64,000 bases of DNA from Amoebophrya sp. A120 (taxonomy: Eukaryota; Protista; Dinoflagellata), in assembly GCA_905178155.1 (NCBI GenBank), contig CAJINV010000010.1, positions 3,430,587 through 3,494,586 on the forward strand, in the 5' to 3' direction. Under the pieces are notes generated by a model. That model saw nothing but the letters and a program-made list of their open reading frames with translations, had not been told where the DNA came from and ran no database searches. A program made the position numbers and the translations under genes. Of the stretch, positions 2,297 through 64,000 are shown in pieces; the first letter of the stretch is position 1; every line of letters begins with the position of its first letter.

Positions 2297-3984
2297 CTAG
2301 TACCTGCACTCCGCGTCTTCCTTCGACTGCGAACCCACGCTGCTCCAGTTTCCGTCAAACGCAGTGCAGACACCGTCGATTTTGTCCGAATTGGATGCCC
2401 CCGCCAATCCGAATCCAGTAGGGGGCGTTGCGCTTGTTCCACCACTTGCCGCTCGCAAATCCGGTATCAAATTCTCGAACCGCAGAAACGACAACACAAG
2501 TAGGCACATTTCGTAGCTGCCCCAGTGCAGCTGCAGAGCGTGATGCGATGTTGAACGGGCGTTGTCCTTATCATCATCGATAATATCGTGCAGCTGCAAC
2601 ACTTTCTTTTCGTAAAACGTTTCCCACAATTGGAGCTATCAAATGTAAAAATGTCTGGGTCTGGAAAATTGTGATGCTGGGTGGCGTATCATGAGGACGC
2701 CACAAGTGCTCGCTCAGCATGACAAGTTTCTGAGCTTCTAGGTGTTGCCTATTCTGCATGACAAACTGCGTTTCTGCATGACAGAAAAGTGGCGCTCTTG
2801 GGTAAGGTGCATGACAGATTTGAGAGTCATGCCAGACAAGCATGACAAACATGCACTCTTCCAGACCCAGACATTTTTACACTTGATAGGAGCAGCTCGT
2901 TCACAAACCCTGCGTTCTCCCGGTATTGCTTGATCAGCAACCAGCCCCGCTTTCGCCACAAGTTTTGGTTCGACCAAAGCCGAACTTCTTGGCGGGAAAC
3001 TGGTGTCCTCGGGATCATTTTGGTTGTACTACTATTAGCTGCGCTGGTGCTCTGCTTGTTCAGAACCGCGATAACGACGGTTAACGCTTGATGCTGGTCA
3101 CCACCAGGAGCATCACCATTACCAGCAGTCCCTCCTCCTGTGCCCGTACAACTGTAGGTTTTCGCAAAGGAGAACGACCAGGCGGAGGTGCTGGAACTCG
3201 AAAGCACAATATGGATTGTGAAAATGTCTGGGTCTGGAAGAATGCATGTTTGTCATGCTTGTCTGGCATGACTCTCAGATCTGTCATGCACGTTACCCAA
3301 GAGCGCAACTTTTCTGTCATGCAGAATGGCACTTTGTCATGCAGAATAGGCAGCACCTAGAAGCTCAGAAACTTGTCATGCTGAGCCAGCACTTGCGGCC
3401 TCCTCATGATACGCCACCGAGCATCACAAGTTTCCAGACCCAGACATTTTTACATTTGATACACAAATTGCTGTTGCAATTTCTCTATCCTCTGCAAAAG
3501 TATCGCACTCGTAGTAATCGCAGTCATGCATTACAAATCTCGTCCAGCCCAAGGAAAAACAGCATGACAAATGCATTCGTCATGCTGAGCCAATTTGTAT
3601 TGCAAGTTATACCAGTACGATACTTTTGCATTGCATATTCTCCAAGCTAACACTCGAGTCCGCGAGCAATTCCAGAACAAAATTATTTTTCCCCCCGCTG
3701 TTCGTAGTTGCAACGCCACCCGCAGTCGGCGCCGTCGCAGCTGCGGTTGTAGAAGACTTCCGCAGCAGGATCGGTTTCCACGGTTTCAGCTGGAAAGACA
3801 GCTCGTCCAGGAGCTTGTTGTCGGGCGTTTCTGGAAGAGCAGTCGGGGGTAGGGGTGGAACCATGTGGTTTGATGTTCCTACGTGGACGTTACTGTGCTG
3901 CTGCATGCCGTTGCCGACTCCTGTCTCCACCCCGCGACCTAGCGCGCGTTCTTGCGTCGTAGAGACGTTTAGGTTTTTCCTCAT
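2297..3984 (-). CDS. Hypothetical protein, 4 exons including a micro-exon of about 20 nt
   Basis: Continuous frame SVSLE|KLQQQFV|LSSSS...FVNELL|QLWETFY after removing three TIR elements. Confidence 0.75.
2637..2888. mobile_element. Introner family A (252-bp subfamily)
   Basis: TIR TATCAAATGTAAAAATGTCTGGGTCTGGAA; direct repeat GGAGC. Confidence 0.93.
3210..3461. mobile_element. Introner family A (252-bp subfamily), inverted relative to 2637-2888
   Basis: Reverse complement of 2637-2888; direct repeat CACAA. Confidence 0.93.
3486..3637. mobile_element. Introner family B
   Basis: TIR core TGCAAAAGTATCG; direct repeat TTCTC. Confidence 0.92.
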
Positions 3985-4969
3985 GTTTTTTTTTCGTGGA
4001 AAGTTGTATCAGTCTAGGCTCGCTGATTTCTATACATGATAAACGCCCTTGCCAGTATTCAAAAGTCTGGCTTGTTTCTCGTGAAATTAGTTTCGATGTT
4101 GTTCTTGATTTTTAAGCTCGACTTTTAAAATGTCACTAGTAGCTGTCAACAATGTATTAAAGCTAGGCTGTACGCACTAATGTGCCGGCTGCGCGACCAA
4201 CTTAAACTTTTACTTTTAGTTATGAGACACTTACGTATATATAATAAATCCCCTTGCTAGAAAAAAACGCGCTGGTAGACCACCTGAGAATACAATACGT
4301 TTTAGAATGAAAATTTTGACGAATTTCAATTTGAAGTGTTCACCTCTTCATTCCATAACGTTAACGACCATCACGAAGATGCTATACTTTACGAACCACG
4401 AACTCAGTGATCAAGCTTCACAACCATGCAGACGATTTTCGGGTCGATACGTACCAACATCCGCTTGCACTGCAGACATTGATGTGCCTTTTACGATTCT
4501 ACCATATTGACACTACATGCTTCATGAAATACTTAAATGCCACGATTACAACACACTGCCTGGGAATAAAAGACTCACATACGACCCAAACGACGAATTC
4601 ATTGTAATCTTCTTCACGAAAGGAATACACATCAGACCTCTGGACCCACCTGACGTGGACTTTTGTTCAATCAATCTACGGAGCGCATAATTGAATCTCG
4701 TACGATTATCAGCAGAACACCTTCGGGAAACGAAGAAAAGACCGCAACGTTTTTGCTTTTGTAAGTTTTTACTTTATGCTGACATGGCTGAGATCTGTGA
4801 GACCGGCTCAACAAACTCGTTGCGAGTTTCCGGCCTACCGGCACCGGCTTTGAGCGCGCTGTCATCATGTATCTATTCACGTTGATGTGAAAAGCAATCT
4901 TCATTTTTGCAGAACCTTGGCATCAAATTCAAATCATACAAACTTAAAAAAAAAGTCAAACCGCATATA

Positions 4970-5660
4970 AATTTAGCATCTTGGATGCGCGGGATTCATC
5001 ACTATAGTTTTGCGTTTCAGGATGCACTGTGCGGAGAGGAATAGAATAAAACGACTCAAAACTAGACAAAACTTTTTGGCACCATTTTTCGCAGACAACA
5101 GATCCTCTTTCACTTTCCATCAGTTCTTCCTCAGACCGCGATCAGAAAAAGATTGCCTTTGAGGACTGACAACCAATGCATCATTCTCAATACCCATCCT
5201 CTTGCTGCGGGCCGGAGGTCGTGCTTTCGGATTGGCCCACCGTTCCATCGGAGCCCACCACGGGTAAAAAGCTGCTTGAAGTGTATGACGACCTGGTCAA
5301 ACGTTACAATCTCAAACGTTAAAATTAGCATCTTGGATGCGCGGGGTTCATCGCTATAGTTTTTCAGGATGCGTTGCGTCACGCTACAAACTGTGCGGTG
5401 AGGAATAGACTAAAACGACTCAAAACAAGACAAAACAGTATCTGAAACCATTTTCGCCATCAGTTCTTCCTCAGACCGCAATCAAAAAAAGATTGCATTT
5501 GAGGACTGACAACCAATGCATCATTCTCAATACCCATCCTCTTGCTGCGGGCCGGAGCTCGTCCCTTCGGATTGGTCCACCGTTCCATCGGAGCCCACCA
5601 CGGTCAAAAAGCTGCTTGAAGCGTATGACCTGCTCAATCGTTACAATCTCAAACGTTACA
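4970..5660. repeat. Diverged tandem duplication of about 340 bp
   Basis: 4970-5320 resembles 5321-5660; ORFs 5153 and 5493 translate to near-identical peptides. Confidence 0.85.
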
Positions 5661-9064: not shown

Positions 9065-9093
9065 TCATCATCATCATCATCATCATCATCATC
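9065..9093. repeat. (TCA)n microsatellite
   Basis: About 9 TCA units. Confidence 0.9.
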
Positions 9094-9385
9094 CCAACCG
9101 CCGCCTAAAAAAGAAGAACGAAACAAAATTTTGAGAAAGGATTCTGTCTTTGGATAGCACTTGCTCCCACCAGCAGCTCGGTAAGAAGTACTACGGGTCA
9201 CCACTTGTCGTTTTGCTTTCCTCTTGCAGCAGCTGCTGTGGAGTATCTATCGTAGTGTTTCTATTTTCATCTTCCAGGTGGTATTTCTCTTGATTTTTGA
9301 CCTACGGGTGACGAAAAATTTCGGCGACGTTACATTACGTTTCTTTACGTATTTTCCATTTATATCCGACTCTCGTGAAGACCAC

Positions 9386-12300
9386 TTACGCGCCGCCATG
9401 GTAGCCGCACTTCTCGTCCATCTTCTGTTTCTCCGCGGTTTCCAGAGCATGCTCCCCAGCCCGCGTGGTTGGGATCGACGGAGTGTTTTGGTGACCGGCG
9501 CCGCCTAAGAGGCCAGACGCACCTGAGATGATTGAACAAGCGGAGAATGCGCGTTTAGGGATTATTGCATGCAATGCCTACTGCGACTGCATACTTACAA
9601 CGGATACAACAACTACTTTGGATCTTGCACGCGCTTAGTTCTCGAACAAGCTTACCGCCGTTGGCCGCACCCATGAATTCCTGATCAAAAGCGCCGGCAT
9701 TAAAAAAACTGTCGTAGCCCGCATCCATCTGGTAACCCATGCCAGCACCCGGAGCATCTGATTTGTGGTGGTCATTTGTCGTGCGGGAAACACATCAAAA
9801 CGATAAACTTGTATTGCTTTTTTGTTTCGCTAGATGTCCTACAAAAGATAAAACTTGTCATGCAGTTGCTTCCATGCTAGTGCAGTTTGCTCATGCGTCG
9901 AAACCTAAATACAGTAAAAAGAAGTACTCAAAGCGTTCGCCATTCCCGCGGAGTAGGAGTTCTGGTAGTTCTTCCAGGACTGTATCAAACAAAAAAAAAT
10001 TTCACGATCACTCATCGACAATCTTGCAATACAAACAGCCTCTGCCATGCATGAAGATGCATCACAATCAAATCTGATACGGGATTTCTCTGGTGCTTTT
10101 GCAATACTACAAGAAAGGCCTCCAAAATTTCTCGTGCGAAAACTGCAAGTGACGAGTGATGATGACCAACTTTCTTCTGTCCATAGACTGCGAAGCACCG
10201 CTACCACGCTTGGAACTGGTATGAAAGTAAAAAACCTTTTTGCTTGTTGTGTTGTACAGAACAACTGCATCACAGGTAGAGGCAGTCAGTTCTTAGTCTA
10301 CTAATCTAGGCTATTCTTGCATCACAAGTTGCGTTGTACGTGTTCTCTCACGTAGACTATAAGCCACGCATCACAGCCCCCGCCGAACTCTGTCATGCTG
10401 ATCCGACACTACAAGCTTTCTACTTCGATTTCCGATCATACCCCGACGCGTTCGACCACTTGTTCCACTCGGCCCACTCCTCGTGACCATACCCAGCACC
10501 GTAGTTCTGATGGTTTTTTTGCATCGCAGGTTTCCTTCGTTTTGGTGAAAACAGCATGACAGAGTTTTGACACTTTTTCTTCGTTCGGGTAAGGACCATA
10601 CGCACTTGTGCTGCTGCATGACGACCTTTCTTGAAGCCAAGAACATGCTGATCATTCTATATCACAAACACAATACTATACCCTCGCAGCAGCGGCCGTC
10701 GCGGCGGAATGGTGGGCGTGCGCCGCCGCCGCGCCCATGTGGGCCGCATATCAAAAGGAAAAATCCTCCCTCCCTAGATCAAAACGGAAATTTGTGATGC
10801 AGGTTTGTGGTCACAAATCATCTTTGTCTTGCATATAAGATCATAGGAGCCATTTAACGCGTTCATGAGCAAGTCTGTCATGCGCTTTCGACTACTGCAA
10901 ACCTGTTTGCCATGCGCAATTGCTAGCCTTCTGCATACTCAAACAGGCTCAGAAAATGCCGCCAAGCACTTTCTGCACGACAAATCTGATTTGTGTACGC
11001 AAATTCAGCATCAGAGACTTCGTTGCGATATGGGGAGGGGGGATTTTTCCTTTCAATACCGCAGCCAGGTTCGCCGTGGGGTTTGCGTTGGCAAATTCGT
11101 CGTTGACCCCAAACCCGTATGGATTGCAAATACGTCTGGGTCTGGAAACTTGTGATGCAAGTCGGTCAATAACAAATGCACTGTAATGCGCCGCCAAGCA
11201 TGACAAGTTGTCTCGTGCTTCTGTGCTGCGTTTTCCGCATGAGAAACTGCGTTTTTGCATGACAGGCGAGAGAGGCTGTTTCGATGGCCCCAAGCAATAC
11301 AGATTTAAGGGCCATTCCAGATCAGCATGACAAATCTCGCAATCTTCCAGACCCAGACATATTTGCACTCCATAACCCGCCGTGATTCCCGGCGCCAGAC
11401 CCGGCGCCAAACGCAGCAGCTCCGAGGGAGTTGACGCCAGCAGATCCCTGTAACCCGCCCGCGGCAGCAGCACCCATGTTCGCCGCGGCGGCAAACTGCG
11501 CAGCGGACAGCTGCGAGGCCGCGTGGTTGGGGACTACGCCCGTGGAGCTGCCATATCCTGAGTAAAAACGTACCCACACCAGAGTCAGGATGGGGATTTT
11601 GCAACAAAAACCTAGGAGGTTTGTGAGTCACGCATGACAAGTTGCACTCTGCAGTGTAGTGCAGGTTAGCAACTGCAGCCGCATCACAAATCCATTTGCT
11701 CATCCTGTTCACAGCATCACAAATTCCAAAACACGACTGGCAATGGCTCTCATGGGGATGCGCGTTACAAGTCTTCCTGTCTTTGCAAATCTGCATTACA
11801 ACTCTGGTGTGGGTACGTTTTTACTCAGGATATGCCACCGTGCATGTTCAAAGCGTTGCCAAACGGGTTCGCGGTGTTGACCCCCGGTAAGTTGCCAAAC
11901 GGGTTCCCGTATGAAATGCAAAAGCAACGTACTAGTATGAATTGCATCACAAATTTCCCCAGCATGAAAAATAAAATTTGTAATGGGGATTTAACTTGAG
12001 AAAGAAATTTTTGAATGCATAAAAGCAATCACTACGAGTACGATACTTTTGCAATGCATATCCCGGTGTTCACCCCCGTCGCAGCACCGCTGGTCTGCGC
12101 CAACATGTTCATCATCGCGTCCAGCTGGGTCTGCTGCGCCTGCAGGTGCTGGCTAATCGCCGCGGAATTCTGCTGTCCCTGCATCTGCTGTTGCTGCTGC
12201 TGCAGAAGCAACTGCTGGTTGTTGTTTCCATTGTTGTTTCCGCCCATGTTGTTCAGGTTGTTCTGGCCGACGTTGTTCTGGCCGTTATTGTTGGCGTTGT

Positions 12301-15300
12301 TCCCGGCACCTCCCATGTTGTTCGCGTTGTTGACGTTCTGTCCATTATTGTGCTGCTGCTGATGGTTGCCGTTGACATTGTGCTGGTTCTGGTTCACGTT
12401 GGGCTGCTGGGTGTTGTTTCCGTTGTTCCCACCAGCAGTGTATCAAATGCAAAAGTGTCTGGGTCTGGAAGATTGGTAGGTTTGTCATGCAGGTTTTCCA
12501 TGACCCACGCGGTCTGCCATGCACGGCCTAGCATGGCAGGCTCTGTGAGATCTCTATCATGCCGTTCCTGCATGAGAAACTGCCTCTAAACTTGTTCAAA
12601 AGTGGACCTCTTTATTTCGTAATCATGCAACACACATTTTTCCACGATCCAGATGTAGCATGACAAGTTGCACTCTTCCAGACCCAGACATTTTTGCAAT
12701 TCATACAGTGTTCAGCCCGTTGTTTCCGCCCTGCTGCTGGTCCAAGTGCCGCACGGAGTTTCCGTTGTTGGCCCCCGAAACAGATCCTGTGCAAAAGCAT
12801 CGTACTCTTTAACTAATCGCAATCATGCAAGACAAATCTTCTTCCCAAGCGAAAGCAGCATGGTGAATTGCATCTGTCATGCTAAGGTCATTTGCCTTGC
12901 GTTTTCTACTAGTACGGTGCTTTTCCGCATGATAAAGTAGACCCATGCTGGCCCAGGGCCGCAGCCATGGCAGCGTTACTAGACGCGTGCTGACTCGACA
13001 GGTGGTGGTAGTTCGCGGCGGCCAACTATTACAGTGAAAAGTGCCCCCCACCCCTAAATTGCAAAAATTTGTGATGCGAAGTTTCCAAATGAAAACTTTT
13101 TGTCATGCATGAAAGGAGTATGAATCTTTCTGATGCAGAATGTAGGCGTGTATCGCATCGCTTGCATGACAAGTGCCGCTCTTGCTGGGGTCTTTTGCAA
13201 TACAAATTTTTGCTATTCACGATTGAAAACCCGTGATGCTGATACATGCAAGAGGGCGAATGTTTCATTTGGAAAGGTTTGCAATACAAATGCTCCCAAG
13301 TTCGGGGGTGGGGGCATTTTTCATCGTAATACCAACTGCCCGGCGTTCAGAGCCGCGGCGTTCGCGTTCAGAGCAGCTGCGTTGCGTTATAACAGTGCAC
13401 AACTCCCCCTCCCGCCCCTCATTTGTATTGCATGAACAGCAACACAAGCAACAGCAGAAAAGGGGCTTTCGCATGACAAAACTGCATGCGGATTCTAGTA
13501 CTATTTGACGTTCCAAAATTTGTCATGCTATCAGTTCCCACCATGCAAGGTGCGAATTTGGTATTTTGCATTACAAATGAGGGGGAGGGGGAGTTGTGCA
13601 CTCTCATATGCGTCCGTCCAGCGCCGCCGCGCCCGGGTTTCCCGCCATCATAGCCGCACAGCCGATCGCGGTGGCCTGCGTATCCTGTGCAAAAGTATCG
13701 CACTCGTAGTCATTGCATTTCTGCATTACAAACCTCTTTCTCAGGGTGAATCAGCATTAGAAATTAAATTTGTATATGCTAATTATTTCTAATGCACTTT
13801 ATACGTAGTACGATGCTTTTCCAATGCATACTGCGCATCGCGGAGCAGCTGGTTGATCTGCGATTCGGGCAGGGCGTTGCGCTGCTTCAAGATACAGGCC
13901 ACGTTCATCGGGTCGCCCTGCTGCGCGCAGGCCTTCATCAGGCAGGAGTAAACCGCGCGGGTGGGCAGACACTTCCAGACGAACGGCATTTGGCGGAAAA
14001 CCAAGTCGATGGCATCGTACAAGCGGTTCACCCCCGCGTACAGGCGCACCAGGATGGAAAAAGTGACGCAGGACGGAGCAATGTTGCACCGCTGCATGTC
14101 CGCGAAAACCATCAGACCTGATTTTTATAATAATGTGTAGTGAAACAGTGCTGTCAGACTTTGATTTCCTTTCACGCATCACAAGCCATTAAGTATTCTT
14201 TCTGCGTTCATCGGAACATATCATGCATGTTGACAGGTCGTTGTAGATAAACACAACAAGCTGAAAAAAAACACGACCCGTACCAGTATCAAAGTCTCCA
14301 ATCTTGGCGCAGCCATCCAACAGAGAGTTGAACATGATCTCATCGTATGGATTGCAAAAGTGTCTGGGTCTGGAAATTTGTGATGCTGGGTGGCGTATCA
14401 TGAGAAGACCACAAGTGCTGGCCCAGCATGACAAGTTTTTGAGCTTCTAGGTGTTGCCTATTCTGCATGACAAACTGCGTTTCTGCATGGCAGAAAAAGG
14501 CGGCTCTTGGGTAACCTGCATGACAGATTTAAGAGTCATGCCAGACAAGCATGACAAACATGCATTCTTCCAGACCCACACATTTTTGCATTTGATACAT
14601 CGACTGGCAAGCGGCGCATCCGGGCCTCGTTGGCGACAAGCAGGGCCTTGCGGAGGTTGCCTTCGTTGCAGAATCCCTTGACCAGGGTGGAGAAGGTGAT
14701 GATGTCCGGCATAATACCTTTATTCGATATAGTATTTTTGCTTCTATCTACGATGCGGATGCGGGACTACGCAAGACAAAAGTTGCTCAGCATGCATGCT
14801 GGATTGTCATGAATCAGAAGTGGAACAAGTAAGTAAGTAAGTAACTTAACTTTTTGATTTCATAATCCAAATCTTTGTGATGCAAAAGCCTGCATAACTA
14901 GACAACATCAGCATCATGGGTCTGTCATGATTTTCACATTACCACTCGCCTGCATCTCCTGTAGGACCATGGCGGCGACCTTCATGTTGTTGCACCGCAC
15001 AGCGACATCAATCAGGGAGTTGTAGGTCACAACGTTGCACGGCACCCGCTCCGACAGCATTTCCTATGGAAAGGAGAAGTCCCCCCGCCCCATAATGAAG
15101 CGGCACGTTTCTCAAAATTTGTGATGCTGATTTGTGGCCACAAATCCTGTCTCTCTTGCATGAGGGCAACCTCAGAGACTCCGCCACGATATGCAGGCGG
15201 TTTGCAATGCTGGAAGGCCTATAGGCTAGACCTCTAGCAAGCTAGGCCCCTACAACAAGAGGCCCCCCCTTAGGATTGCGATCTGCGTGCAGTCCTTTAC

Positions 15301-18300
15301 TGCAAGACAAATCTGATTTGTGTACTCAAATACAGCACCACAGATTTCCGTTTTGTCATGGGGAGGGGGGATTTTTCTTCTTGATATTTCCCGGTACAGC
15401 TTCATGGCACGGGCGAGGTCCTTGATCTTGGCGAAACCTGACAGAGTATGTCAACAGGTAGCTTTGCAACACAAATTTTTTCCAAAATTCTGTTTCGATG
15501 CTACGGCTCCGCATGATTGAAATTGTGATGCATGAAGACCGCTACAATCGTAAGTTATATATCAGTACCTTTGATGATGGTCGTGTACAGAACCGTGTTC
15601 TTGTGCAGGTTGGAGGACTTCATGTCTTCAAAAGTTTGGACGGCCATCTCCACGTGGTTGCACTTCACGCAGGCATCCAGCATGCAGCCGTAGGTGACCG
15701 CGTTCGGGTATCCCACAGAAAAAAGCAGGCAGGGCAGATTTGTAATGCAAAAATAAATACACAGAAAAATCTGTCATGGGCGGCCCCATAGCATGCTGTT
15801 TAGGATATGCTATGCAGACTTTTTTGTGTATTTGTTTTTGCATTACAAATGTGACCTGCCGGCTTTTTTCTGTGTGATATCGGGGGAATATCGGTCTTGC
15901 GCATCTCCTCCCACAACAGCAGAACTGAAAATTTGTATTGCAGAATCCGGATTTGAAAGAGTGGTCTCTGTTGCAGCTGGTGAAAGTGGAACAGCAACAG
16001 CATTTGATACTGAATAAACGGAACCAACGATCCTGGATGCTATTATTTGCAGAAGTTGAAAGCAATTTGTGACGCTGCAATGCAATTATGCAATGCAATA
16101 TCAAAACAACTCCTCTACCGCGATTGAAGTCCCGGAAGGTTCCGTAGGCCTTGATCAGGGTACCGTACGTGACCGCCCCCGGCCGGGCCGAGTACATGTG
16201 CCCACGCAGGTCCACCATCGTTTGTTCCATCGACTGGACGTCCCGGAGTATCAAATGCAAATATGTCTGAGTCTGGAAGAGTGTACTCAAACTTGTCATG
16301 CTGGTTTTCCATGATCCATGAGGTCTGGAATGCGGTACCTAGCATGAAAGACTCTGTGAGGTCTGTATCCTGCCTTTACTGCATGAGAAACTCCGTCCCA
16401 ACTTGGTCGAAAGTGGCCTGCTTTTGGCACTCATGCTCATGCAACACAGACTTCTGCATGATTCAGATTTAGCATGACAAGTTGCCACCTTCCAGACCCA
16501 GACGTATTTGCAGTTGATACGGAGGCGCGCGAAACCATCCAGGCACGTGTTGTACAGACCTTCTTCCGCGTCCTTGGACTTCCGGATATGCAATACAAAT
16601 CTCCCGTACATGTACAAGATGCATCACAAATTTCACCAATTTGGAGCGTGAAACTTATCATGCTAAACTAGGATCGAAGCCAAGTTTTGTCATGCAGAGA
16701 CCGCATTTGCACGTCGTGTACGGGAAATTTACTGTGGATACCGCAGGAATTTTTTCAACAGCGAAAACCCCCGGCGCAGTTTCGCGGTGCGGCTGTCGCC
16801 ATCGAGGGAGATTTTCACGAGCGCGGAGACGGACTGGTAGTCGATCTGGTAGTCGGAGGTCAGCATCTTGTCCACCCACGACCAGGCTTCGTCGACCTTC
16901 TTCCAGCGGATGGCGTGGTCCAGGTACTTTTGGTACCGCATGGCGTTCTCGTCCTGGACAACCGCGGGAGCTGCAGTGGCGGTGGTGTTCTGCTGTTGCT
17001 GCACGTTGGCCGGTTGCGCAGCCGGCTCCTCCTGCAGCTTGGTCTCGGAGGCAACTACATTTTCCACAGTTTGGTCCACCAGAGTCGGTTCCCCAGTATC
17101 AAATGCAAATGTGTTTGGGTTCTTTGGAAGAGTTGTGCCAATTAATTGTCACGCTTGGCCGACGATAAAAGAAAAGTCTGTCATGCTTGTTGCGCGGCTA
17201 CAACGTCACTTCGATTTGTCATGCAAAAAGACAATTTTTCATGCGATTAAGAACGCTACACATTGTAGCCGCTCAGATGAAAGAACTTGTCATGCGCGGC
17301 TCCGCAATACGGTCTGCCGTGTATCATTGGGACATTAGCATGACAACCTTCCAGAGGACCCAGACATATTGGATGCGGTGGATACCCCGCATCAAATGTA
17401 AAAATGTCTGGGTCTGGAAGAACGCGCGATTTGTCATGCAGCTTTTCCACGATCCATGAGGTCTGGAATGCAGGACGTAGCATGACAGATGCTGCGCGAT
17501 CTTTCTCATGCCTCTCCTGCATGAGAAACTGCCTCGCGACTTGGTCAAAACTGGACGACTTTTGGTAATCATGCAACACAGACTTTTGCATGCTTCAGAT
17601 TTAGCATGACAAGTTGCATTCTTCCAGACCCAGACATTTTTACATTTGATACCCCGTCGCCGTCAGCAAATCCGCCGCGCCGGAGTTCAGCAGGGCCGCA
17701 TTCGGATATGCTGTGCAAAAGTATCATAGTAATCTTCGCAGTCACGCATTACAAATCTCCTTCTTGAGGCGAACCCGCATCACAAGTTCCGGTTCTCATG
17801 CTGATAAAATTTGTCATGCGATTTACACTACAACGAGACAACTTTATTTGCAGCGCATATCGGACTGGTCATCACGATCTCGTTTTCTTTGTCACCGATA
17901 TGGGACTCTCAAACGTTACATTCTCAACTGTTACATGATTTGCCATGCAAATTTACCACCAAGATCGCCACGATTAAGCTGCTTCGCATAACAAATCTAC
18001 GAAGGGCTAAACAGCATCTAAATCTGTGCCAAATCTGTAATGCAAAAGGCGCAATCTTGCTCCTTTCACTTTTGCCGTTCTTGCATTACAAATTCGTGTA
18101 ACCGTTGAGAATGTAACATTAGAGAACGCCATAACCGACCGCGCCGGCTTCCATTCCCGACAGCATCTGCAGTTTCTTATGATATGCATTGCAAAAGTAT
18201 CGCACTCGTAGTAATTGCAGTCATGCATTACAAATCTCTTTCGTTAGGTAAATCCGCATTACAAATTTTATTTCTCATGCTGAGAAAATTTGTAATGCAT

Positions 18301-19659
18301 TTATACGAGTACGATACTTTTGCACAGGATATATGAGGGTGCACAACTCTCGCCCCTCCCTGTTCATGCTGTATGGCATGAACAGCAATACAAACACCAG
18401 CACACTTAGACCCTGTGCATGACAAATAACTCGAACCCCAAATGTTAAAAATTTGGAGTACTCAAGTACTGTTTGGGCAGCTTCAGAGCAATTTCTCATG
18501 CAAACAGTGCCACAAAGCAGCAACGAGATTGTGAACTTTGCATCACAATAAACACAAATCAGGGGGAGGGGGACGACTTGTGCACTCTCATATTTCTCAT
18601 TCTCGCAGCAGTCGTCCTCATTCGCATTCGCGATGTTTTTGTGGTCGGTGTCGGTGTCCGGGGTGGTGTGGGCCAGAGATTCGGTGGTTTCGGCCGACGC
18701 AGCAGAGCAGTATCAACTGTAAAAATGTCTGGGTCTGGAAGAATCCAACTTGTCATGCTGATTTTGAATTCTCAAAAAATCTGTATTGCATGAGCAGCAA
18801 AGAGAGTCCAAGTTTTGCTACACGGAAAGAGCATGTGTCAAGCGGTATAGGCATCAGGAAGCCGTCACAAAATCTGTGATGCTAGGGCATGCATCACAGA
18901 CATCAGGAGTCATGCAAAATGTGCATGACATACCTGGCAATCTTCCAGACCCAAACATTTTTACATTTGATAAGCAGGTTTGCTTCTCGATGAACTGGTT
19001 GCATTTCGTGATCGTGCCCGGCTTATGCATGGCAAAAGCATCGTACTAGTAGCAATGGCATCACAAATTTGCTGCTCAGCATGAGACGCCGAACTTGTCA
19101 TGCTGATTTAGCTCGAGAAGCAGATTTGTCATGCATGTACGACTAGGATAGTTTTGCACAGGATAGTGGTTTTTGGTCGGGGTGGTCGGGTGCAGATCCT
19201 GGTCTTGCTGCTCCATTTGCTCCACCTGCTTCTATCGCAAGAAAAAACTGTTTCACTGTGAACTTGTGATGCAGAAAATGCATCTGAGAAGTGTTTGTGT
19301 TGCTACACATGCAAGACAATGGATTTCTGGCTGTGTTTTCCCTCAGGAATCTCGCATGGCAAATTTCCTCTGTGATGTAGAGCAAACCTGTGATGCAAAA
19401 CCTGCAAAATCCTTACAGTGAAACATTTTTTTCTTACGATAGCTTCGCTACCTGGTGTATTAATTCTTGGAGTTCAGTTCCTAAGGAAGAAAGCAAATTC
19501 AGTTCCGCAAACTCTCTAGTCCCGTGGGAGAAGTGAGAGTGACAACCTCTAATGCATAATGACGCATGAGTAGAAACAAGAATTTGATACCGCAGTCTCC
19601 TCCACAGGCAGGGCGGCCACCGAGACGGCGGCCTCTTCCGGGACACCAGTTGCAGTCAT
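9386..19659 (-). CDS. Pentatricopeptide-repeat (PPR) protein with N/Q/G/A-rich C-terminal tail, about 31 introns
   Basis: Reconstructed PPR motifs PGAVTYGTLIKAYG, PNAVTYGCMLDACVK, TVLYTTIIKGFAK, NVVTYNSLIDVAVR, PDIITFSTLVKGFC, DEIMFNSLLDGCAK, PSCVTFSILVRLYA, PTRAVYSCLMKACAQ. About 22 TIR-type introns plus 9 GT-AG introns (9523-9655, 9758-9927, 10216-10441, 10507-10681, 14118-14283, 14718-14942, 15438-15568, 15925-16118, 19452-19590). Confidence 0.9.
9983..10185. mobile_element. Decayed introner
   Basis: TAT..ATA ends, weak TIR, direct repeat GACTG. Confidence 0.75.
10749..11058. mobile_element. Introner family I
   Basis: TIR TAT..AAAGGAAAAATCC..CCTCCC; direct repeat CCGCA. Confidence 0.9.
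11118..11374. mobile_element. Introner family A
   Basis: TIR with GTCTGGGTCTGGAA; direct repeat ACCCG. Confidence 0.92.
11554..11832. mobile_element. Introner family K
   Basis: Perfect TIR TATCCTGAGTAAAAACGTACCCACACCAGAGT; direct repeat TGCCA. Confidence 0.95.
11910..12060. mobile_element. Introner family B
   Basis: TIR; direct repeat TCCCG. Confidence 0.9.
12441..12705. mobile_element. Introner family A
   Basis: TIR; direct repeat CAGTG. Confidence 0.92.
12783..12934. mobile_element. Introner family B, eroded
   Basis: Left end GAT instead of TAT; flanks AAACA/AAGTA; frame restored (GST|SGANNG). Confidence 0.8.
13027..13331. mobile_element. Introner family J
   Basis: TIR TATTAC..TGAAAA.TGCCCCC; direct repeat CCAAC. 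Confidence 0.9.
13388..13608. mobile_element. Introner family F
   Basis: TIR GTGCACAACTCCCCCTCCC; direct repeat TGCGT. Confidence 0.93.
13681..13830. mobile_element. Introner family B
   Basis: TIR; direct repeat CTGCG. Confidence 0.92.
14346..14597. mobile_element. Introner family A (252-bp subfamily)
   Basis: Close copy of 2637-2888; direct repeat CATCG; splits PPR motif LPVD|EIMFNS. Confidence 0.94.
15065..15386. mobile_element. Introner family I
   Basis: TIR; direct repeat TTTCC. Confidence 0.9.
15709..15879. mobile_element. Introner family H (long hairpin)
   Basis: TIR of about 60 bp starting TATC.CACAGAAAAAAGC; direct repeat TCGGG. Confidence 0.93.
16249..16519. mobile_element. Introner family A
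   Basis: TIR; direct repeat CGGAG. Confidence 0.92.
16587..16740. mobile_element. Introner family G
   Basis: TIR core AAAT.TCCCGTACA; flanks CCGGA/CCGCA. Confidence 0.85.
17097..17651. mobile_element. Two family A introners in tandem at one target site (17097-17384 and 17390-17651)
   Basis: Three target copies CCCAG / CCCCG / CCCCG; the elements are separated by only 5 bp. Confidence 0.88.
17707..17859. mobile_element. Introner family B
   Basis: Direct repeat TCGGA. Confidence 0.87.
17899..18133. mobile_element. Introner family C-like
   Basis: TIR core GTTACATTCTCAAC.GTTACA; direct repeat ACCGA. Confidence 0.9.
18178..18592. mobile_element. Family F introner with a family B introner (18183-18331) nested in its terminus
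   Basis: Outer direct repeat TTTCT; inner direct repeat TATGA. Confidence 0.9.
18711..18972. mobile_element. Introner family A
   Basis: TIR; direct repeat AGCAG. Confidence 0.92.
19024..19165. mobile_element. Introner family B, direct repeat lost
   Basis: TIR present; flanks CGGCT/GTGGT; frame restored by removing element plus 5 nt. Confidence 0.8.
19233..19441. mobile_element. Introner family E
   Basis: Homologous to 757-974; direct repeat GCTTC. Confidence 0.92.
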
Positions 19660-19972
19660 CTTGCTCTTATGCAAAATAAAAACTTCCGGGTCATCGGGAT
19701 CATTCGTGACGCGAGTGATTTGAAGGACAGCGACAGCGCGATCTGTGATGCATACACGCGATCTGTGATGCATTACAAGGAAAAATCATTCGCGTTCCTT
19801 CTCCAAGAGAACCAGCACCCAGATTGATATTTTCATTTCCATACGTTATGGTCTGGTCTCCGATCTGCGATGTGTGCCTCTTAGCCGTTTTTGGTCAAGA
19901 GAATTCCCGTCCGTGCTGGTCTGTAGCTTGTCCAATTTCCTTCCAGAATCGGACTACACCACGCTCTTCCTC

Positions 19973-41500: not shown

Positions 41501-44500
41501 AGGACGGAAATCACCACCACGGAAACCACACCCATGACGGCGATGGCGTTCAAAATTCCGAACCAGTGGACCTGAAAAAGTAGTTTTTGTCATGCTTCCC
41601 CGGGTTGCATGACAAAGAGGTCTTGTCATGCTTTGTTTTGCATTACAAATTTATGTACCTTCATATGCGCTCGTCCTTCCCTTCCCTCCTCCTCGGACAC
41701 AATTCCGGCGTAGTTGTTATCGTATGTAAAAACGTCTCCACCCTTGTAAGTAATGCAAAACTGCATGCTGAAAATGTTTCTCATGCGAAGCCCCATGAGA
41801 AGCATTGCCTAGTCGTGTTTTGGAATTTGTCATGCTCCAATCTGCATCATATACGAGATCTGTGATGCTGCTGAACTACCTCAAACAGCACTACACTACG
41901 AGTCCAAATTTGTCATGCAAAACGGCCAAAACATGTGGACTTGTCTAGCCGATTCCCCATCTTGACTATGGGATCGTGGGGACGTTTTTACATAGGATAG
42001 TTGTGCATGATTTGGTACTCCAGCGCCTCGTCCCGGGTCATCCCGTAGTCCGTGTGCGGAAACCAGTGCACGGACATCGTGAACTGGACCTTCATATGCA
42101 TTGCAAAAGTATCGCACTCGTATAAATGCATTACAAATTTTCTCAGCATTAGAAATAAAATTTGTAATGCGGATTTACCTTAAGAAAAGGATTTGTAATG
42201 CATGATTGCAATTACGTACGAGTACGATACTTCTGCACAGGATACTTCAACGACTTTTTCATGTTCGTGTTCATTTTCGCATCCCCATCTATGCATCTTC
42301 AGAAAAGTTATCGCACTACTAGAAATTGCCTTCCAACTTTTTCCAGATGGCATGATTTTTAATGCTAATTTTCTTCAAACAGAGGAAACTTGTCAGCATG
42401 CGTCATCGATGCAAAAATTAGCACGAGTACTATGCGATACTTTTGTAGAAGATACCCTCAGGGAAAGAACCGCTGAAGGAGAAGTATAACTTGCTCAAGC
42501 GTTACAATCTCAAACGTTACAGTAGAATATAGAAATCTGTGATGCAAGAAGTGCATGAGCTAACCTACTCTCACAGGGTTGCGCATGACAAGTTTCGGAG
42601 CCCCAAACCGCACTAGAATCTGCCGAGATCTGTATTGCAGAAAGTGGAACGCTCCGCGATTCTGTCATGCCTAGCATGCAAGACAAAATCCAGATTCTAT
42701 TGTAACGTTTGAGATTCTATCGTTTGAGCGGGTCATATGAAGAGCGGGATGTCGGGTAGCTCCGTCATGTCGGATAGAAGCGGCGAGGTCATCTTCACCT
42801 GCATGATCTCCCCCTTGCTGTGCGTGACCTCAAAGTCGTAGTGGTTGCGCAGGTAGTACTTGGATTTCTTTTTCAGATCCTCCTTCTCCTCTTCCGACAA
42901 ATTCATGTCCTGCTCGTTGTCAATCAGGCCCTCCCTTTTGTGGTACAATTCCGAGACGTACACGCTCCACATCTTCTCGGCCAGATTTTGCTTGTGGAAC
43001 GGCGTTATGGACTGCAAATATCTATGTCTGGGTCTGGAAACTTGTGATGCTAAGATGTGAATGGTGAGCGCAGCCGCAGTGCAATACGCCGTCAAGCATG
43101 ACAAATCTTTGGGCTGCTAATCTGTTTCGTTTTCCGTATGGCAAACTGCGTTTTTGCATGACAGGCAACCAGCCCTTCTCCTGCTCATGCATCACAGATT
43201 TATGAGTCATGCCAGCCTAGCATGACAGATCTTGCATTCTTCCAGACCCAGACATATTTGCAGTTCATAGGCGTCTCTTCCGGGCGGAGGCTGCTTTCCG
43301 CGATCTCCTTGTCCCCTTCCTTCTCCAGTTCTTCATAGTGCTTGGCGTTATTTATCCAACGAAAAAAGTGTTTCACTGTGATAAATTTGCAAGATCCGCA
43401 TCACAAGTTTCTTTACACATGACACAGAAAATTTGTCATGCGCGCTGCCACAGGGAAAACACCCTCCACGAGTCAAGGCCGTGCAGGTGTAGCAACACAA
43501 AAAGTTCTGTGTTCCATTCTATGCATCACAAGTTCACAGTTTTTTCTTTCGATATTATTCGGGGACAGCTTAATGCCGATGAAATCCGAGACGGGAAACT
43601 GATCCACAGAGAGCTCGGCGATGTACCTGGTGGTGTCGCGTGTTCTTTATGTTGTATGTACAACACGTGAAGATGATGCAAGATAGACCTAAACTTGCCA
43701 TTATGGTGCTGGATGATCACATGCATCGTTATGTGCTGCTATTCTGGTACTACGTGCCTTGATGTTGACCACGTGCACGTGCTAGGTTCATTTCTCTGGT
43801 GCCACCATTCATCAAAACAATTTTGTGGTGCCTCCAAAGTAGTACAGAACAAGTGGTCCTCCATGTAGTAACTAAAGCAAGTAAGTACCACTCATCAATC
43901 CCCTTTCTTAGCATCGCGATCTCCCAGGGATTCAGCTCGCGCTCGCAAATAACCTTGGTCTTGGTCTCATACACAAACGCGGAACCCGGTTGACTCGCCT
44001 CTACCTTCCAAAACTGGGAAGGCAGGCGTTTGAAATCTAGCTGGGAAGAAAGCAGCCGGTCGCCCTGGAGTATCTGGCCCAAGGTCATAAACTGCGGGAT
44101 CGGCAACTCGGGGGCGCAGACTAACGGGAAGTCGTAGTACCTGTTGGTGATGTGATATCATAGCATTTGATGTTGACAAACACCCACAACGCGGAAAACA
44201 TGTAGCATGTGCAGCTGCAAAATTTTCATATCCAAAAACTTGTCCAACGTGTCGCATAAAATACCCCAGACGAACTACTGCTCTTACCTGTATGTTTCCT
44301 GCGGGTTTTCGCTCGGCCAGATTTTGTTATCAAAGCGAAAAAAAGCCACCACCCCATAGAAAACAAGAAATTTCTGTTGCTGGATTTCTGTACACAAATC
44401 AGGGCTGTATTGCACATGGCGCTTGGAGGCACTTCCTAAGCCTGAATGATGGGTATGCAGCAAGCTAGCAGTTAGGCAGGGCAGACACCTTTGCAGTATG

Positions 44501-46026
44501 CAAAAGCGCATCACAGATTGGCTGTGGAATGCGCCAAGCGGCTCCCATTTGCCCCATATGCAAGACAGACCTGATTTGTGGTCACAAATCAGCATCACAA
44601 ATTTCCTTCTCGGTATGGGGAAGAGGGATTTTTCCTCACAATACTTGTTGACAAAAACCCGCACGTCATTTGCGTAATCCTTGACGTAAGATTTTGCGGA
44701 TTCCAGATACTGCGTATCCGGTAGAAGTTTGTGGATGAATTTGGTGTAGACGTGCGACTCTGGGATGCTATCAACTGTAAAAATGTCTGGGTCTGGAAGA
44801 TTCTGACACTTGGTTGGTTGGTTGGGTAGCGCCTGTCGCCGGTGCAGGTCCCATCCTCCATCGATTGCGATCCGGAGTAGCCGGAACACGAGGCCCTAGT
44901 GGCACAACTTGTCACGCACGTTTTGCATGAGCCACGATGTCTGTGATGCATACCCTAGCAATACAGATTTTTTGAGGGCTTCTTGATGCCTATTCCGCAT
45001 GACAAATGCCTTCTCAGCGTAGCAAAACTTGGGTTCTCTTTGCTGCTCATGCAATACAGACTTTTTTAGAATCCAAAATCAGCATGACAAGTTGGATTCT
45101 TGCAGACCCAGACATTTTTACGGTTGATAGATGCCATCGTGGTCGTAATCCGCCTCCAACACCCCGTCGCGATCCACATCGGACGTGTGGTGCTCGCGCA
45201 AGTGCTCGACTTCCTCGCTACTCGGATTCCCGCCCAGTAAGGACACAAGCTCCATGTCCTGTTGCGTACTTGTACCGTCGTTGTCTGCCATCATATTGCC
45301 ACCCACCTCCACATCGTCACTCAGCGCGCGACGGTATTCCGATTCCGTTCTGGGAACCTTCAAACCTGATGCGCTAGGAAAACTTCTACCATGCTCTTGT
45401 TTTTGTCCTGCTGTCGTGAGCGAATTGTCTGTAGCATAATTTGCGCCGACCTGGTCTGTTGCAGCCTGGTTGTGCCTACTGTTTGAAGATGAGTCAACTG
45501 CATCCTCGCTTGGTGCTCCTGCCGCCGCTGCACCATGTGAAGATCCTCCTCTTTGGTCCGTTGTCCCACTGCTTGGAGCGGCTGCATCCTCTTGCAACCG
45601 CCTTGGCAGTGCACCTGCGTCCCGACCGGCTCCGGATGTTGAAGTACTACTTCTAAATCCCGCATCTTCGACACCAGCAGCTTGCCGCACCAGATTTCTT
45701 TCCTCTTCAGCGGCCCGGAGCTGTGGCGGTGGTGCGTCGCCTGAGGCGCTGGCGCTGCTACTGGGAAGATTAAGATTATGTTTGTCTTCCGACACCAGCG
45801 CCTGGGCCGCTGCTCCTGGTTCATTATCCGCATCGGAAATTCCCCCGGCCTGTCGGTCCGCGGTGCAAGAGTAAAAATGAGAAAAATGCCCATGAAACTG
45901 CAGTCCGGCGGTTGCGAGAGCCACCACCCGTTGCCGTCGCCTGCTTGAGGAGGCAGATGTCGGTAGTAGGGACGTCGGCTTGCAGCTCCTTTGTGATCTC
46001 CGCATTTTTTCCTCACCCATTTTCAT
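38536..46026 (-). CDS. Transmembrane 9 superfamily (TM9SF/EMP70 nonaspanin) protein, 15 TIR introns plus several GT-AG introns
   Basis: Motifs YYDFPLVC, LGQILQGDR, VHWFGILN, GWKLLHADVFRPP, GGLPFLSMYAELHYIFDSVW, AENYKWWWRSF and C-terminal IYARIKSD. Confidence 0.92.
38884..39100. mobile_element. Introner family F, inverted relative to 13388-13608
   Basis: Left end TGT; direct repeat TGGCC. Confidence 0.9.
39711..39882. mobile_element. Introner family H
   Basis: Homologous to 15709-15879; direct repeat ACTTG. Confidence 0.92.
39944..40154. mobile_element. Introner family D-like
   Basis: Direct repeat AAACG. Confidence 0.87.
40318..40467. mobile_element. Introner family B
   Basis: Direct repeat GCTTC; splits GWK|LLHADVFRPP. 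Confidence 0.93.
40507..40774. mobile_element. Introner family A
   Basis: Direct repeat GTTGT. Confidence 0.9.
40824..41107. mobile_element. Introner family A
   Basis: Flanks TGGCC/TAGCC; right end GTA. Confidence 0.85.
41155..41396. mobile_element. Introner family A
   Basis: Direct repeat TGTAC. Confidence 0.92.
41718..41999. mobile_element. Introner family K
   Basis: Direct repeat GTTGT; inverted homolog of 52950-53229. Confidence 0.9.
42095..42244. mobile_element. Introner family B
   Basis: Direct repeat CTTCA. Confidence 0.92.
42290..42454. mobile_element. Introner family B-like
   Basis: Flanks CCATC/CCCTC. Confidence 0.83.
42485..42737. mobile_element. Introner family C
   Basis: Homologous to 5624-5942; flanks AGAAG/TGAAG. 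Confidence 0.9.
43006..43269. mobile_element. Introner family A
   Basis: Direct repeat GGCGT. Confidence 0.92.
43353..43554. mobile_element. Introner family E
   Basis: Direct repeat TTATT; inverted homolog of 757-974. Confidence 0.88.
44328..44643. mobile_element. Introner family I
   Basis: Flanks TTTGT/CTTGT. Confidence 0.87.
44769..45129. mobile_element. Introner family A carrying a 94-bp insert
   Basis: Direct repeat GATGC. Confidence 0.9.
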
Positions 46027-47360
46027 CGTCGACCGATACCTTTAGAACGGCGCAGGAGCTTCGCGGTCATTAAAAACAGCCCAGGCGGAGGTCGACGTCG
46101 TGCTGGTGGTGGTGGTGTACTTACACACTCTGTCTAGATCGAAAAATGTTACCTCCACGAGTTGTAGTACTAGCACAAGCGGACCGCATTTTTGTAGAAC
46201 TTGATGTGGTTGTATGAAAATCTTGTACTACTTCTTACCGCAAACTACACTTCTCGAAATAATGAAGACGGCTACTGTACAAGAGAGGTGGACAACATGA
46301 CGAAACCATCATAAGACCTCATCCAAAAACGATCGGACTAAAAAGGAGTTTTGTTTGATGAGCATACTAGTACTCAAGAACTACACGTATACACTCTTGT
46401 CAACCTACTGAAACACACGAACCTCGCAGCTTGATACAAATTCAGAACATGGCGTGAATGTGAAATAGATCTGGCATCACTGAGGAATGGAACCGCATTG
46501 GACGATCAACATCACATCTAAATCGCTGCACCTTACTATAGCTTCTGCAGCAAGAAAGAATTTTTCATGTTTCCAGTAAAGATGGCGGAGCCCATAGCAT
46601 CACTGACAGCTACCTGGTAAAGTTCGTCGTAGCAATAGGAACACAGGACCTCACTCATCTTCAAAGGAAGAAATCCGTCACAGACATAGCCTGCCGGTCC
46701 ATTTCGGAAAATCCTCGGCAGAAACGGCAAAGCCGTTTTCTATTCCAATTTCGTTTTGTTTTTCGTACAGAATCATACAGTCAGCCATTTATAATTGTGG
46801 TGCATTTTCAAAAAAAATTCTAATTGTTGCGGAAAAAAATTCCAAATCACAAGACTGGTAGTATCTATCTCTCTTCAATACTACGCATTTCTAATCGGTG
46901 CTTGTCTTTACTCCTTCGGTAAAAAAGACGGGCATTGTCTTCGTGACACGCTGCGTCCTTCACAGCGCCACTTTCTTCCCGCTCCTGTTCGGTCGCACTC
47001 TTCGCCGTTACTTGATTTTCCAGACAATCAGAATCCCTCTTCCCCGCATTGTTCCTTTCGTGGTTCCATCATGTTAGTTCTAGTTGAGTGATGTTCTAAT
47101 TTCTGTTTCTCATCTATAAAAAGTCACAACATCAATCTTCTACCCGTTCTTTAATTTGCTTGCTCCATAAGTGATGCTGTGCCATCTATGTCTATGCTTC
47201 GCACACGATAAAGCAGATTGTTGCAGGTAGTGTTTCTTTAATTTTGAAGCAAGATTCTTTTCCAAGACATGAATTTTCCTAATAAAATCAGGAGATCCGT
47301 CCTTCTGCACGGGCAGCAACTCCCAACCTTGTTTTTCCGCACGGCGACAAGCTCTGTCTA

Positions 47361-51286: not shown

Positions 51287-51325
51287 AATGTGCTCCTCAC
51301 CCTCTGAGAGGGTGAGGAGCACATT
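51287..51325. repeat. Perfect palindrome with 19-bp arms
   Basis: AATGTGCTCCTCACCCTCT G AGAGGGTGAGGAGCACATT. Confidence 0.92.
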
Positions 51326-62800: not shown

Positions 62801-64000
62801 GACATATTTGCATTTTATAGTCTTTCCGTCTTTCACCTCCAAGGCCTGCAGCTTCTGGTTCATCAGGATCAGATCGTTCCCGAGCGACCAATTCTTGTGC
62901 TTCAGATCCGCGTTCACTCGTTCCAGGGAATCCCGGCTGTGGGCCGTAGTTTTTAATTCCTTCTCCAATTTTTCCTGTGCGAACTTCAACTCTTGCAGCT
63001 TTTCCTTGTACTTCTGTTCGACCGAGTCCTTCCACGACTTATCTTTCATTAAATTATGCAAGAAAAAAACTGTGTGAGTGTAACTTTGTCTTGCAGATGT
63101 TGCGCTACAGTTACACTTGTTATGCTGGATATGCTTTAGAAGCTATTTTGATACTTACGTGTTTAGTTTTCGCGTACTAGCGACGCATGACAGGTTTTCT
63201 CTGTCACGCAAAACAAATCTGTCATGCTGTTCCTGCCAAAAAGTTACACTTACACACTTTTTTTCTTGCGATACAAATCGCCCGCCCCCCAGTACGCCAG
63301 CTCCTCCTTGCACTGCCGAATGGTCTGCAGGGCCACCTGGATGTCCCGCAGCATCTGCTCGTGAGACGTTCCTTTCGTCAAGCTCGTGACGCTGGTGCTG
63401 GGAGACAGCAACGCCGCGGATATGACAGTGCACAACTCCCCCTCCCCCTCATTTGTGTAGCATGAACGGCACTGCAAGCCACAGCCAGAATGCACGTTTT
63501 GCATCACAAATTTGCATAGGATTGTAGTGCTCTTTGGGCTGCCAGAACTTGTCATGCAAACGCTGCTCAGAGGCACGGACTGCATTGGGCATTTTGCATG
63601 ACAAATGAGGGGGAGGGGGAGTTGTGCACATTCATAGCGGAGTTGCCGGACTGAAAAGACGTCGTGGACAATTTCGACCCCAGCCTCTTATATCAAATGC
63701 AAATATGTCTGGGTCTGAAATAAACTTGTGATGCTGGGTGGCGAGTCCTGAGGACGCCACAAGTGATGGCTCAGCATGCCAAGTTTCTGACTTGCTAGGT
63801 GTTGCGTATTGTGCATGACAGACCGCGTTTCGGCATGACAGAACAGTGGGGCTCTTGGGTACTAACGAGCATGACAGACTTTGGAGTCATGCTAGCAGAG
63901 CATGACAGATCTTCCATTCTTCCAGACCCAGACCTTTTTGCAATCCATATCGCAGGGGACAACGATCCCCCACCCGTCGCCGTCCTTGGGTGCTGCTGAA
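59852..64000 (-). CDS. Coiled-coil protein; 5' part lies beyond the window and the 3' exon structure is tentative
   Basis: E/K/Q-rich heptad-like exons (KYKEKLQELKFAQEKLEKEL, EIEKQKAEIQQLKKALLEME) separated by 7 introners. Confidence 0.72.
61070..61352. mobile_element. Eroded introner
   Basis: TATGCA.TGCAA ends; direct repeat lost; frame restored (EKD|LKIDRL). Confidence 0.75.
61672..61929. mobile_element. Introner family A
   Basis: Direct repeat GCTTT. Confidence 0.9.
62134..62451. mobile_element. Introner family I
   Basis: Direct repeat CCTGC. Confidence 0.9.
62528..62819. mobile_element. Introner family A
   Basis: Direct repeat GTCTT. Confidence 0.9.
63055..63273. mobile_element. Introner family D-like
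   Basis: TIR core AAGAAAAAAA.TGTGT.AGTGTAAC; flanks TAAAT/CAAAT. Confidence 0.88.
63421..63636. mobile_element. Introner family F
   Basis: Direct repeat GCGGA. Confidence 0.92.
63691..63949. mobile_element. Introner family A
   Basis: TIR; flanks TCTTA/TCGCA. Confidence 0.88.

Follow-up and report, generated by a model that had tools for sequence, protein, structure and literature searches.

A shared, helically phased word in the introners of Amoebophrya sp. A120, with exact copies in a subset of ordinary introns

The introners of the dinoflagellate Amoebophrya sp. A120, short elements with terminal inverted repeats (TIRs) that are spliced out of transcripts, share a nine-base word, GCA(T/A)NACA(A/G), which forms phased arrays inside them and occurs as exact copies in some ordinary GT-AG introns. 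The analysis covered 64,000 nucleotides of A120 DNA (contig CAJINV010000010.1, positions 3,430,587 to 3,494,586; the whole stretch is called the window here) and a wider sample from a related assembly. On balance we favour, with somewhat better than even confidence, the reading that the word is a putative protein site on double-stranded DNA, arrayed in phase in introners and kept by the host in a subset of ordinary introns.

A search of both strands of the window for the pattern GCAWNACAR gave 269 matches (154 forward, 115 reverse), against 13.1 ± 3.6 and a maximum of 24 in 100 dinucleotide shuffles. The commonest 9-mer of the window is GCATGACAA, with 81 copies, and the next variants are GCATCACAA (38), GCATGACAG (35), and GCATTACAA (28). 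Elements hold 239 motifs in 16,595 bp (14.4/kb), or 89% of all window copies, and the 14 GT-AG introns hold 20 in 2,402 bp (8.3/kb); the remainder are scattered over intergenic and untranslated DNA (6 in 15,299 bp, 0.39/kb), exons (3 in 24,105 bp, 0.12/kb), and a satellite (1 in 5,599 bp, 0.18/kb). The initial annotation of this DNA had described a word that recurs several times per element and is rare in exons and in the satellite, and these counts bear out both statements. Exonic and intergenic frequencies lie near background, and the equal frequency across compartments that would have spoken against that annotation was not seen.

The wider sample comprised at least 158 loci, together 576 kb of non-redundant sequence, from one publicly available related assembly; it was retrieved with the TIR of one element family (family 0), and is therefore biased toward that family and toward element-rich regions. 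Since one protein of this assembly is 95% identical to its A120 counterpart, it represents a close relative and is only partly independent. In loci of at least 2 kb the word occurs at 13.6/kb in elements, 1.8/kb in predicted GT-AG introns (25 copies, 3.8 expected), 0.41/kb in other non-coding DNA (74, 36 expected), and 0.18/kb in exons (39, 31 expected). These introns are predictions without RNA support. Gene prediction found 12 of 13 hand-set window introns, with many false calls besides; 1,090 raw predicted introns were reduced to 126 by score filters, to 104 clean introns with no profile hit of 20 bits or more, and to 73 by requiring a GTA start and the dominant strand. The window is unusually rich, with the motif in 10 of 14 GT-AG introns versus 20 of 73 in the relative; overall, 30 of 87 carry an exact copy.

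About 70 short TIR elements lie in the window. Their ends read TAT-N7-AAA...TTT-N7-ATA beside a 5-bp target duplication, most contain several motifs, and they are non-coding, inserted in either orientation, and spliced out exactly. They were located by scans for TIRs and target-site duplications (TSDs), some ends being placed by hand. A search of the relative that imposed TAT ends and tolerated at most one mismatch in the 5-bp repeat yielded 379 elements versus 4 in a shuffled control; A occupies positions 11-13 of their end logo in 85-93%. A perfect 5-bp repeat flanks most window elements found from TIRs alone and 312 of the 379. The 437 elements shorter than 420 bp (66 listed from the window, plus the relative) fall into 16 multi-copy families and 18 singletons, with lengths that group by family, and the word is present in 429 of them, including 416 of the 419 within multi-copy families. 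Elements are concentrated in exons (389 versus 34 in non-coding DNA, about tenfold denser).

Removing each element together with one duplicate restores long reading frames, including that of a pentatricopeptide-repeat (PPR) gene of about 1,050 amino acids. Runs X1-X4, which we guess to be RNA, come from one sample, and joints were taken from contigs of X1-X3 only; run X4 yielded no splice joints. Within 13600-17950 these contigs share 12 joints, of which eight skip an element plus 5 nt, covering nine elements removed at non-canonical sites, and four are GT-AG introns. The element joints and a representative family-0 element are as follows.

13681..17859, minus strand: nine elements spliced out, with skips of 155, 257, 327, 176, 276, 159, 560 (two adjacent), and 158, in one contig each of X1, X2, and X3
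2637..2888, no strand assigned: family-0 example element, with motifs at offsets -32, +80, +119, +139, +172, and +203, including a 20-bp pair at 2756/2776

The two elements within 17097-17651 sit 5 bp apart and are removed jointly, the skip of 560 comprising both plus two duplications. The two duplications differ at 16582-16586 and at 17092-17096; in both cases the copy kept in the RNA-like contig is the one upstream in the transcript, and these introns cannot end in AG. A joint at 14559-17616, of low depth and in X1 alone, was treated as a repeat artefact.

The arrangement of the word inside elements follows the DNA helix. In 14 family consensus sequences no site starts within the first 31 bp of an end, the earliest being at 32; first sites that point outward group at 32-33, 42-44, and 53-55, and those that point inward at 35-37 and 45-49. 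A 10.5-bp period is seen in the distance from the nearer end (R = 0.45, 57 consensus sites within 110 bp; permutation p = 7e-4 over 28 ends), and likewise in the distances between adjacent consensus sites (R = 0.70 for 24 same-strand pairs, R = 0.49 for 29 opposite pairs), so that copies in both orientations lie mostly on one helix face. The phase reference was the CA step of GCA, the best of eight positions tried, with a half-turn twin. At one end of family 0 two main length classes place the first site at 33 or at 41-42. The spacing of about 20 bp mentioned in the initial annotation proved minor: among adjacent same-strand pairs in the window 5 are at 20 bp versus 50 at 31-33 bp, and a 20-bp periodicity was rejected. 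The arrangement as a whole is the one expected of sites contacted by a protein along a single face of B-DNA.

In 13 of 14 families the columns of the motif show higher conservation than the rest of the interior (for example, 0.82 versus 0.63). The element interiors had been called unalignable, but 14 of 91 family pairs have motif-masked similarity that exceeded all 60 shuffles, and the families are not entirely independent of one another. Enrichment on both strands, helical spacing, and conserved motif columns together uphold the earlier proposal of a strand-symmetric DNA-binding site, in putative form.

In the window the word was found in the following GT-AG introns.

2157..2303, minus strand: one motif (2250); frame restored, predicted
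9758..9927, minus strand: two motifs (9809, 9855); PPR frame restored
10216..10423, minus strand: four motifs; frame restored; weak full-length family-2 match (15 bits)
10507..10681, minus strand: one motif (10554); frame restored
14118..14283, minus strand: one motif (14176); RNA-like joint, skip 166
14718..14942, minus strand: two motifs (14771, 14875), no TIR; RNA-like joint, skip 225
15438..15568, minus strand: two motifs (15466, 15523), no TIR; RNA-like joint, skip 131
15925..16118, minus strand: one motif (15933); RNA-like joint, skip 194
39233..39323, minus strand: one motif (39283); frame restored; X5 depth 72 versus 67 in the adjoining exon bin, near single-copy
41572..41658, minus strand: 87-nt intron with five motifs, no TIR; constant genome-to-contig offset after removal
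19452-19590, 43627-43888, 44141-44287, and 60710-60969, minus strand: four introns without an exact motif

The introns at 14718-14942, 15438-15568, and 41572-41658, cited in the initial annotation as TIR-less carriers of the word, are all real and hold two, two, and five motifs. The first two were seen as CT..AC joints in X1-X3 contigs; for the third, the genome-to-contig offset across a TM9SF gene becomes constant once the elements and this intron are taken out, a further 18-nt shift being accounted for by a predicted move of an acceptor from 43645 to 43627. GTA opens every one of the 14 GT-AG introns in the window. Many introns close with CAG after an A/C-rich tail and have no pyrimidine tract.

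In the 73 introns of the relative the top de novo 8-mer is GCATGACA (14 copies versus 0.8 expected), and none of 234 permuted patterns reaches the 25 copies of the word observed there. Both orientations are enriched about 6.5-fold (9 sense versus 1.4 expected, 16 antisense versus 2.5), where an intronic RNA splicing element would be expected to show enrichment on the sense strand only. The outer 24 nt of GT-AG introns are depleted of sites (4 versus 14.2 expected), and at 24-50 nt from an end sites are in excess (28 of 45 versus 16.5 expected), the latter range having been chosen post hoc. Two thirds of motif-positive introns (20 of 30) hold a single site, in either orientation. The word is flanked by T-rich sequence upstream and A/T-rich sequence downstream.

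Do these intron copies descend from elements? Motif-positive GT-AG introns show no excess of TIR or TSD signal over negative ones, terminal or internal, and relics of either kind were rejected, none being found at the ends or inside. Tested against an element library of 14 family profiles, intron motif flanks match at 17.1 of 32 positions versus 16.8 when shuffled and 27.0 for element sites (n = 41). Relative to exact copies, the excess of copies with one mismatch stands at 0.85 in the relative's GT-AG introns versus 0.67-0.82 in fresh elements; simulated decay to 30% divergence, at which 31 of 120 fragments were still detected, gives 3.75 or more, and other non-coding DNA, at 2.0, has a decayed pattern. 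Neutral relics of the sampled families therefore do not explain the intron copies, which are mostly exact and lack detectable element homology. Given that the density of elements in non-coding DNA is roughly a tenth of that in exons, few relics would be expected in introns in any case.

These results bear on the simplest alternative, that the word is only a transposase-binding subterminal repeat and that motif-bearing GT-AG introns are old elements or fragments decaying neutrally. This is the strongest rival, and we consider it doubtful. It would account for the location of 89% of window copies inside elements, for the resemblance of intron sites at 24-50 nt (within the limits of that post hoc range) to first sites in elements, and for the tendency of positive introns to cluster (p = 0.016) and to lie in element-denser regions (p = 0.003 for 1.36 versus 0.82 per kb, and p = 0.07 in the relative by itself). 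Intron 10216-10423, with its weak family-2 match, may be a converted family-2 element, and inverted and direct repeat organization is reported for 15% of A120 canonical introns; the same paper counts 1,954 families (PMC7789003), against the 14 profiles used here. Relics of unsampled rare families are a possible source of intron copies. Against it stand the exactness of those copies with no matching surplus of decayed ones, the decayed pattern that other non-coding DNA does show, flanks that are not element-like, the lack of TIR relics, and the position of the word outside the TIR.

Two further alternatives are less probable. Intrinsic bending or nucleosome-like positioning, in which phased CA/TG steps beside A/T tracts wrap a chromatin particle with no sequence-specific reader, fits the flanks of the word and the finding that the two best phase references are two CA steps half a turn apart; other introners have been linked to nucleosome linkers (PMC9860276). 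A signal of shape alone would have no need of one fixed word across unrelated families and singly in introns, and once motifs are masked, A/T dinucleotides show weak autocorrelation, with a peak of 0.094 at lag 12 above a level of about 0.075; we consider this account improbable. Ranked lowest is a signal at the RNA level, either through pairing of the word with its complement to fold the intron or through an RNA-binding protein that defines introns. In predicted folds of element RNA the paired fraction is 0.77 for motif bases, 0.43 being paired with a further copy of the motif, against 0.61 in the rest of the interior; the word is intron-enriched and near splice sites, and Farhat et al. (2021; PMC7789003) detected no U1 in A120. 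However, enrichment of both strands in GT-AG introns, the lack of a pairing partner in single-site introns, exact copies in one orientation only in 103 of 437 elements, and a 10.5-bp period, which is a property of B-DNA, all argue otherwise.

Under the favored reading of a double-stranded DNA site, several protein molecules would bind one face of an array, and binding would bend or wrap the 110-360-bp elements until their two ends meet; ends so joined could be mobilized in trans, in the manner of subterminal repeats of other DNA transposons. The same protein, host or domesticated, may also work in gene bodies, in chromatin organization or in assisting co-transcriptional splicing, and exact copies would then be preserved in some GT-AG introns, at 24-50 nt from an end, in sequence free of coding constraint. 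Selection on the word after insertion is suggestive only. Comparing 121 older copies (with a mismatched duplication) with 182 young ones, the motif gained 0.024 mismatches and the inner TIR 0.047 (bootstrap P = 0.005). Decay at the rate of neighboring bases had been named in the initial annotation as the outcome that would count against a functional word; the mostly exact intron copies depart from it, though in old elements slower decay than that of the conserved interior was not significant.

Several observations weigh against this reading. The gain of 0.024 in older copies is not significantly below the 0.036 of the conserved interior (P = 0.12), and non-exonic copies have diverged at motif and inner TIR alike. 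The statistics are inflated, since the phase reference was picked from eight, families share modules, and motif columns were set on the consensus. An exact copy is lacking in 57 of 87 GT-AG introns, where sites also show no 10.5-bp phase, whether measured from the splice sites (p = 0.26 with n = 27, p = 0.37 with n = 18) or from one neighboring site to the next. Ten short elements, two of them unusually strong hairpins, have no exact word, and one element of 5,886 bp with the same ends lacks a motif array and contains just three copies of the rare variant GCAAAACAA; the word would thus be helpful and not strictly required, be it for transposition or splicing. No binding protein was found, no transposase family was recognized in 67 long open reading frames (ORFs) of the fetched loci (of 158 listed), and the part of the published account available to us reports no transposase inside A120 introners and none found in A120 (Farhat et al., 2021; PMC7789003).

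A more specific proposal is that the protein, host or derived from a transposon by domestication, marks introns on DNA. Phased GCATGACAA arrays, bound by it, would signal intron position to the co-transcriptional splicing machinery, for which no U1 has been found, any hairpin-ended element with an array would be cleanly spliced whatever its terminal dinucleotides, and the host would have spread the mark into GT-AG introns. We regard this as rather unlikely. A general intron-definition code is not supported: a universal signal of this kind is weakened by the many introns without a copy, by the lack of phasing to splice sites, and by the few elements that lack the word.

The elements of the window, from the TIR/TSD scans and with no strand assigned, are listed below.

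757-974, 2637-2888, 3210-3461, 3486-3637, 5624-5942, 9983-10185, 10749-11058, 11118-11374, 11554-11832, 11910-12060: elements
12441-12705, 12783-12934, 13027-13331, 13388-13608, 13681-13830, 14346-14597, 15065-15386, 15709-15879, 16249-16519, 16587-16740: elements
17097-17384, 17390-17651, 17707-17859, 17899-18133, 18711-18972, 19024-19165, 19233-19441, 19973-20186: elements
18178-18592: element hosting a nested family-1 element, 18183-18331
19668-19843: decayed element
22837-23098, 27137-27399, 27539-27797, 27843-28108, 28287-28559, 28624-28944, 28988-29139, 29308-29570, 30354-30664: elements
30778-36919: element, host of a nested 5.9-kb element
30879..36764: 5,886-bp element with TAT...ATA ends, duplication GCTCC, and a 150-bp TIR (145/150), nested in a family-0 element
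38884-39100, 39711-39882, 39944-40154, 40318-40467, 40507-40774, 40824-41107, 41155-41396, 41718-41999, 42095-42244, 42290-42454: elements
42485-42737, 43006-43269, 43353-43554, 44328-44643, 44769-45129, 47796-48057, 52950-53229, 56311-56572: elements
59779-59891, 60245-60417, 60475-60672, 61070-61352, 61672-61929, 62134-62451, 62528-62819, 63055-63273, 63421-63636, 63691-63949: elements

The family-1 element at 18183-18331 sits 5 bp into the TIR of its host and so forms an intron within an intron. The interior of the 5,886-bp element is the satellite (256 bp, 14 times), bounded by inverted 108-bp arrays; its host is a 251-bp family-0 introner within an exon, and the intron, if spliced, would measure about 6.1 kb. 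A second introner with captured repeats is the 1.1-kb element at 505-1608 of locus L022, whose left part bears motifs and whose right part is low-complexity and motif-free. It proved to be a low-complexity insert when the long elements were considered as candidate autonomous elements, and that possibility was rejected; neither a cognate autonomous element nor a transposase was found in the 67 ORFs or in eight longer elements. The motif-free elements at 59779-59891 and at 1641 of locus L018 (111 bp) form hairpins at -0.56 and -0.64 kcal/mol per nt versus an average of -0.37, and a long stem may stand in for the motif in such very short elements. Viral contigs scanned with the TIR and with a three-motif array gave no match either way. 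RNA reads of runs X8 and X9, which bear the same species label, match only element pieces at 41165-41239 and 41914-41967, in other contexts, and cover no window exons; so the element families occur in a further strain.

Annotated genes of the window all lie on the minus strand.

9555..19657, minus strand: PPR-repeat gene, about 1,050 amino acids when spliced; richest in elements, motif in 7 of 8 GT-AG introns
22259..25042, minus strand: NSUN2-like methyltransferase gene; searched region 100% identical to an Amoebophrya sp. A120 protein, a match that establishes the source organism
38539..46028, minus strand: EMP70/TM9SF gene; many elements, four GT-AG introns, two with the motif

The region 4100-9200 is poorly explained and contains a tandem duplication of about 300 bp near 4970-5620, along with an ORF-like stretch that is short and GC-rich and 2 kb of AT-rich sequence free of long ORFs. 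In locus L019 (2625-6080) a C5 cytosine DNA methyltransferase gene is split by a motif-bearing intron (4457-4711).

The shared word bears on two questions raised by the published work consulted: what mobilizes some 30,000 elements, no transposase having been found in A120, and how non-GT-AG introns are spliced exactly, no U1 having been detected. One word with a defined geometry in all 16 sampled multi-copy families suggests a common trans-acting factor, for whose purification the shared word offers a bait. If the host does keep the word in ordinary introns, it has either domesticated a signal of transposons or had a chromatin signal of its own hijacked; should the word be no more than a subterminal repeat, it would still bring many 'unrelated' families together under one machinery.

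The elements of the window are, from the same organism, the A120 introners described by Farhat et al. (2021; PMC7789003), whose inverted repeats start with TAT, seven variable nucleotides, and AAA, with 5-bp direct repeats and non-canonical splice sites; here too we found the TAT-N7-AAA inverted repeat, a direct repeat of 3-5 nt, non-canonical removal, and repeated families. The portion of that report available to us describes terminal repeats only, with no mention of an internal word, phasing, or GT-AG occurrence; the text of its supplement contains neither GCATGACA nor TGTCATGC, and the figures (inverted repeat logos, examples), which lay outside the search, may show the word. Gozashti et al. 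(2025; PMC12130899) list 58 A120 families, of which the two rows consulted are classed as 'TIR DNA, unknown superfamily', and family 38, with TIRs and Copia/Gypsy-like ORFs, is a possible source of the mobilizing enzyme. The term 'subterminal' is absent from the accessible text of that paper, and the word from its supplement files apart from 13 and 14, which were not covered. Our search of the literature turned up no report of a shared phased word with exact GT-AG copies, figures, these two files, and Roy et al. (2023) falling outside it.

A close parallel is offered by Emigrant MITEs, whose subterminal repeats are bound by Lemi1: short repeated motifs lie inside the TIRs, in both orientations, their arrangement matters, and the element is non-autonomous and mobilized in trans; subterminal repeats in Sleeping Beauty, pogo, CACTA, and hAT are cited in the same source (PMC1636448). 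Like the Emigrant repeats, the A120 word is short and recurs close to each end of a TIR element. Unlike them, as far as the consulted part of that source describes them, it does not copy half of the TIR of one family but lies outside the TIR in 16 families whose inner TIRs differ, follows the helical period, and has exact copies in host GT-AG introns. Confinement to elements and relics is a trait of the subterminal-repeat class; here 30 of 87 GT-AG introns carry the word with no detectable homology to the sampled families, rare ones lying outside the sample. The nonconventional introns of euglenids likewise are non-GT-AG, have TIRs and TSD-like repeats, and have their ends brought together in RNA, whereas only pairing of the ends, and no internal strand-symmetric word phased on DNA, is described for them in the part of the source available (PMC11282704). 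Thus the elements themselves were already known, and within the literature searched no earlier account was found of a phased word common to them or of exact copies of it in GT-AG introns.

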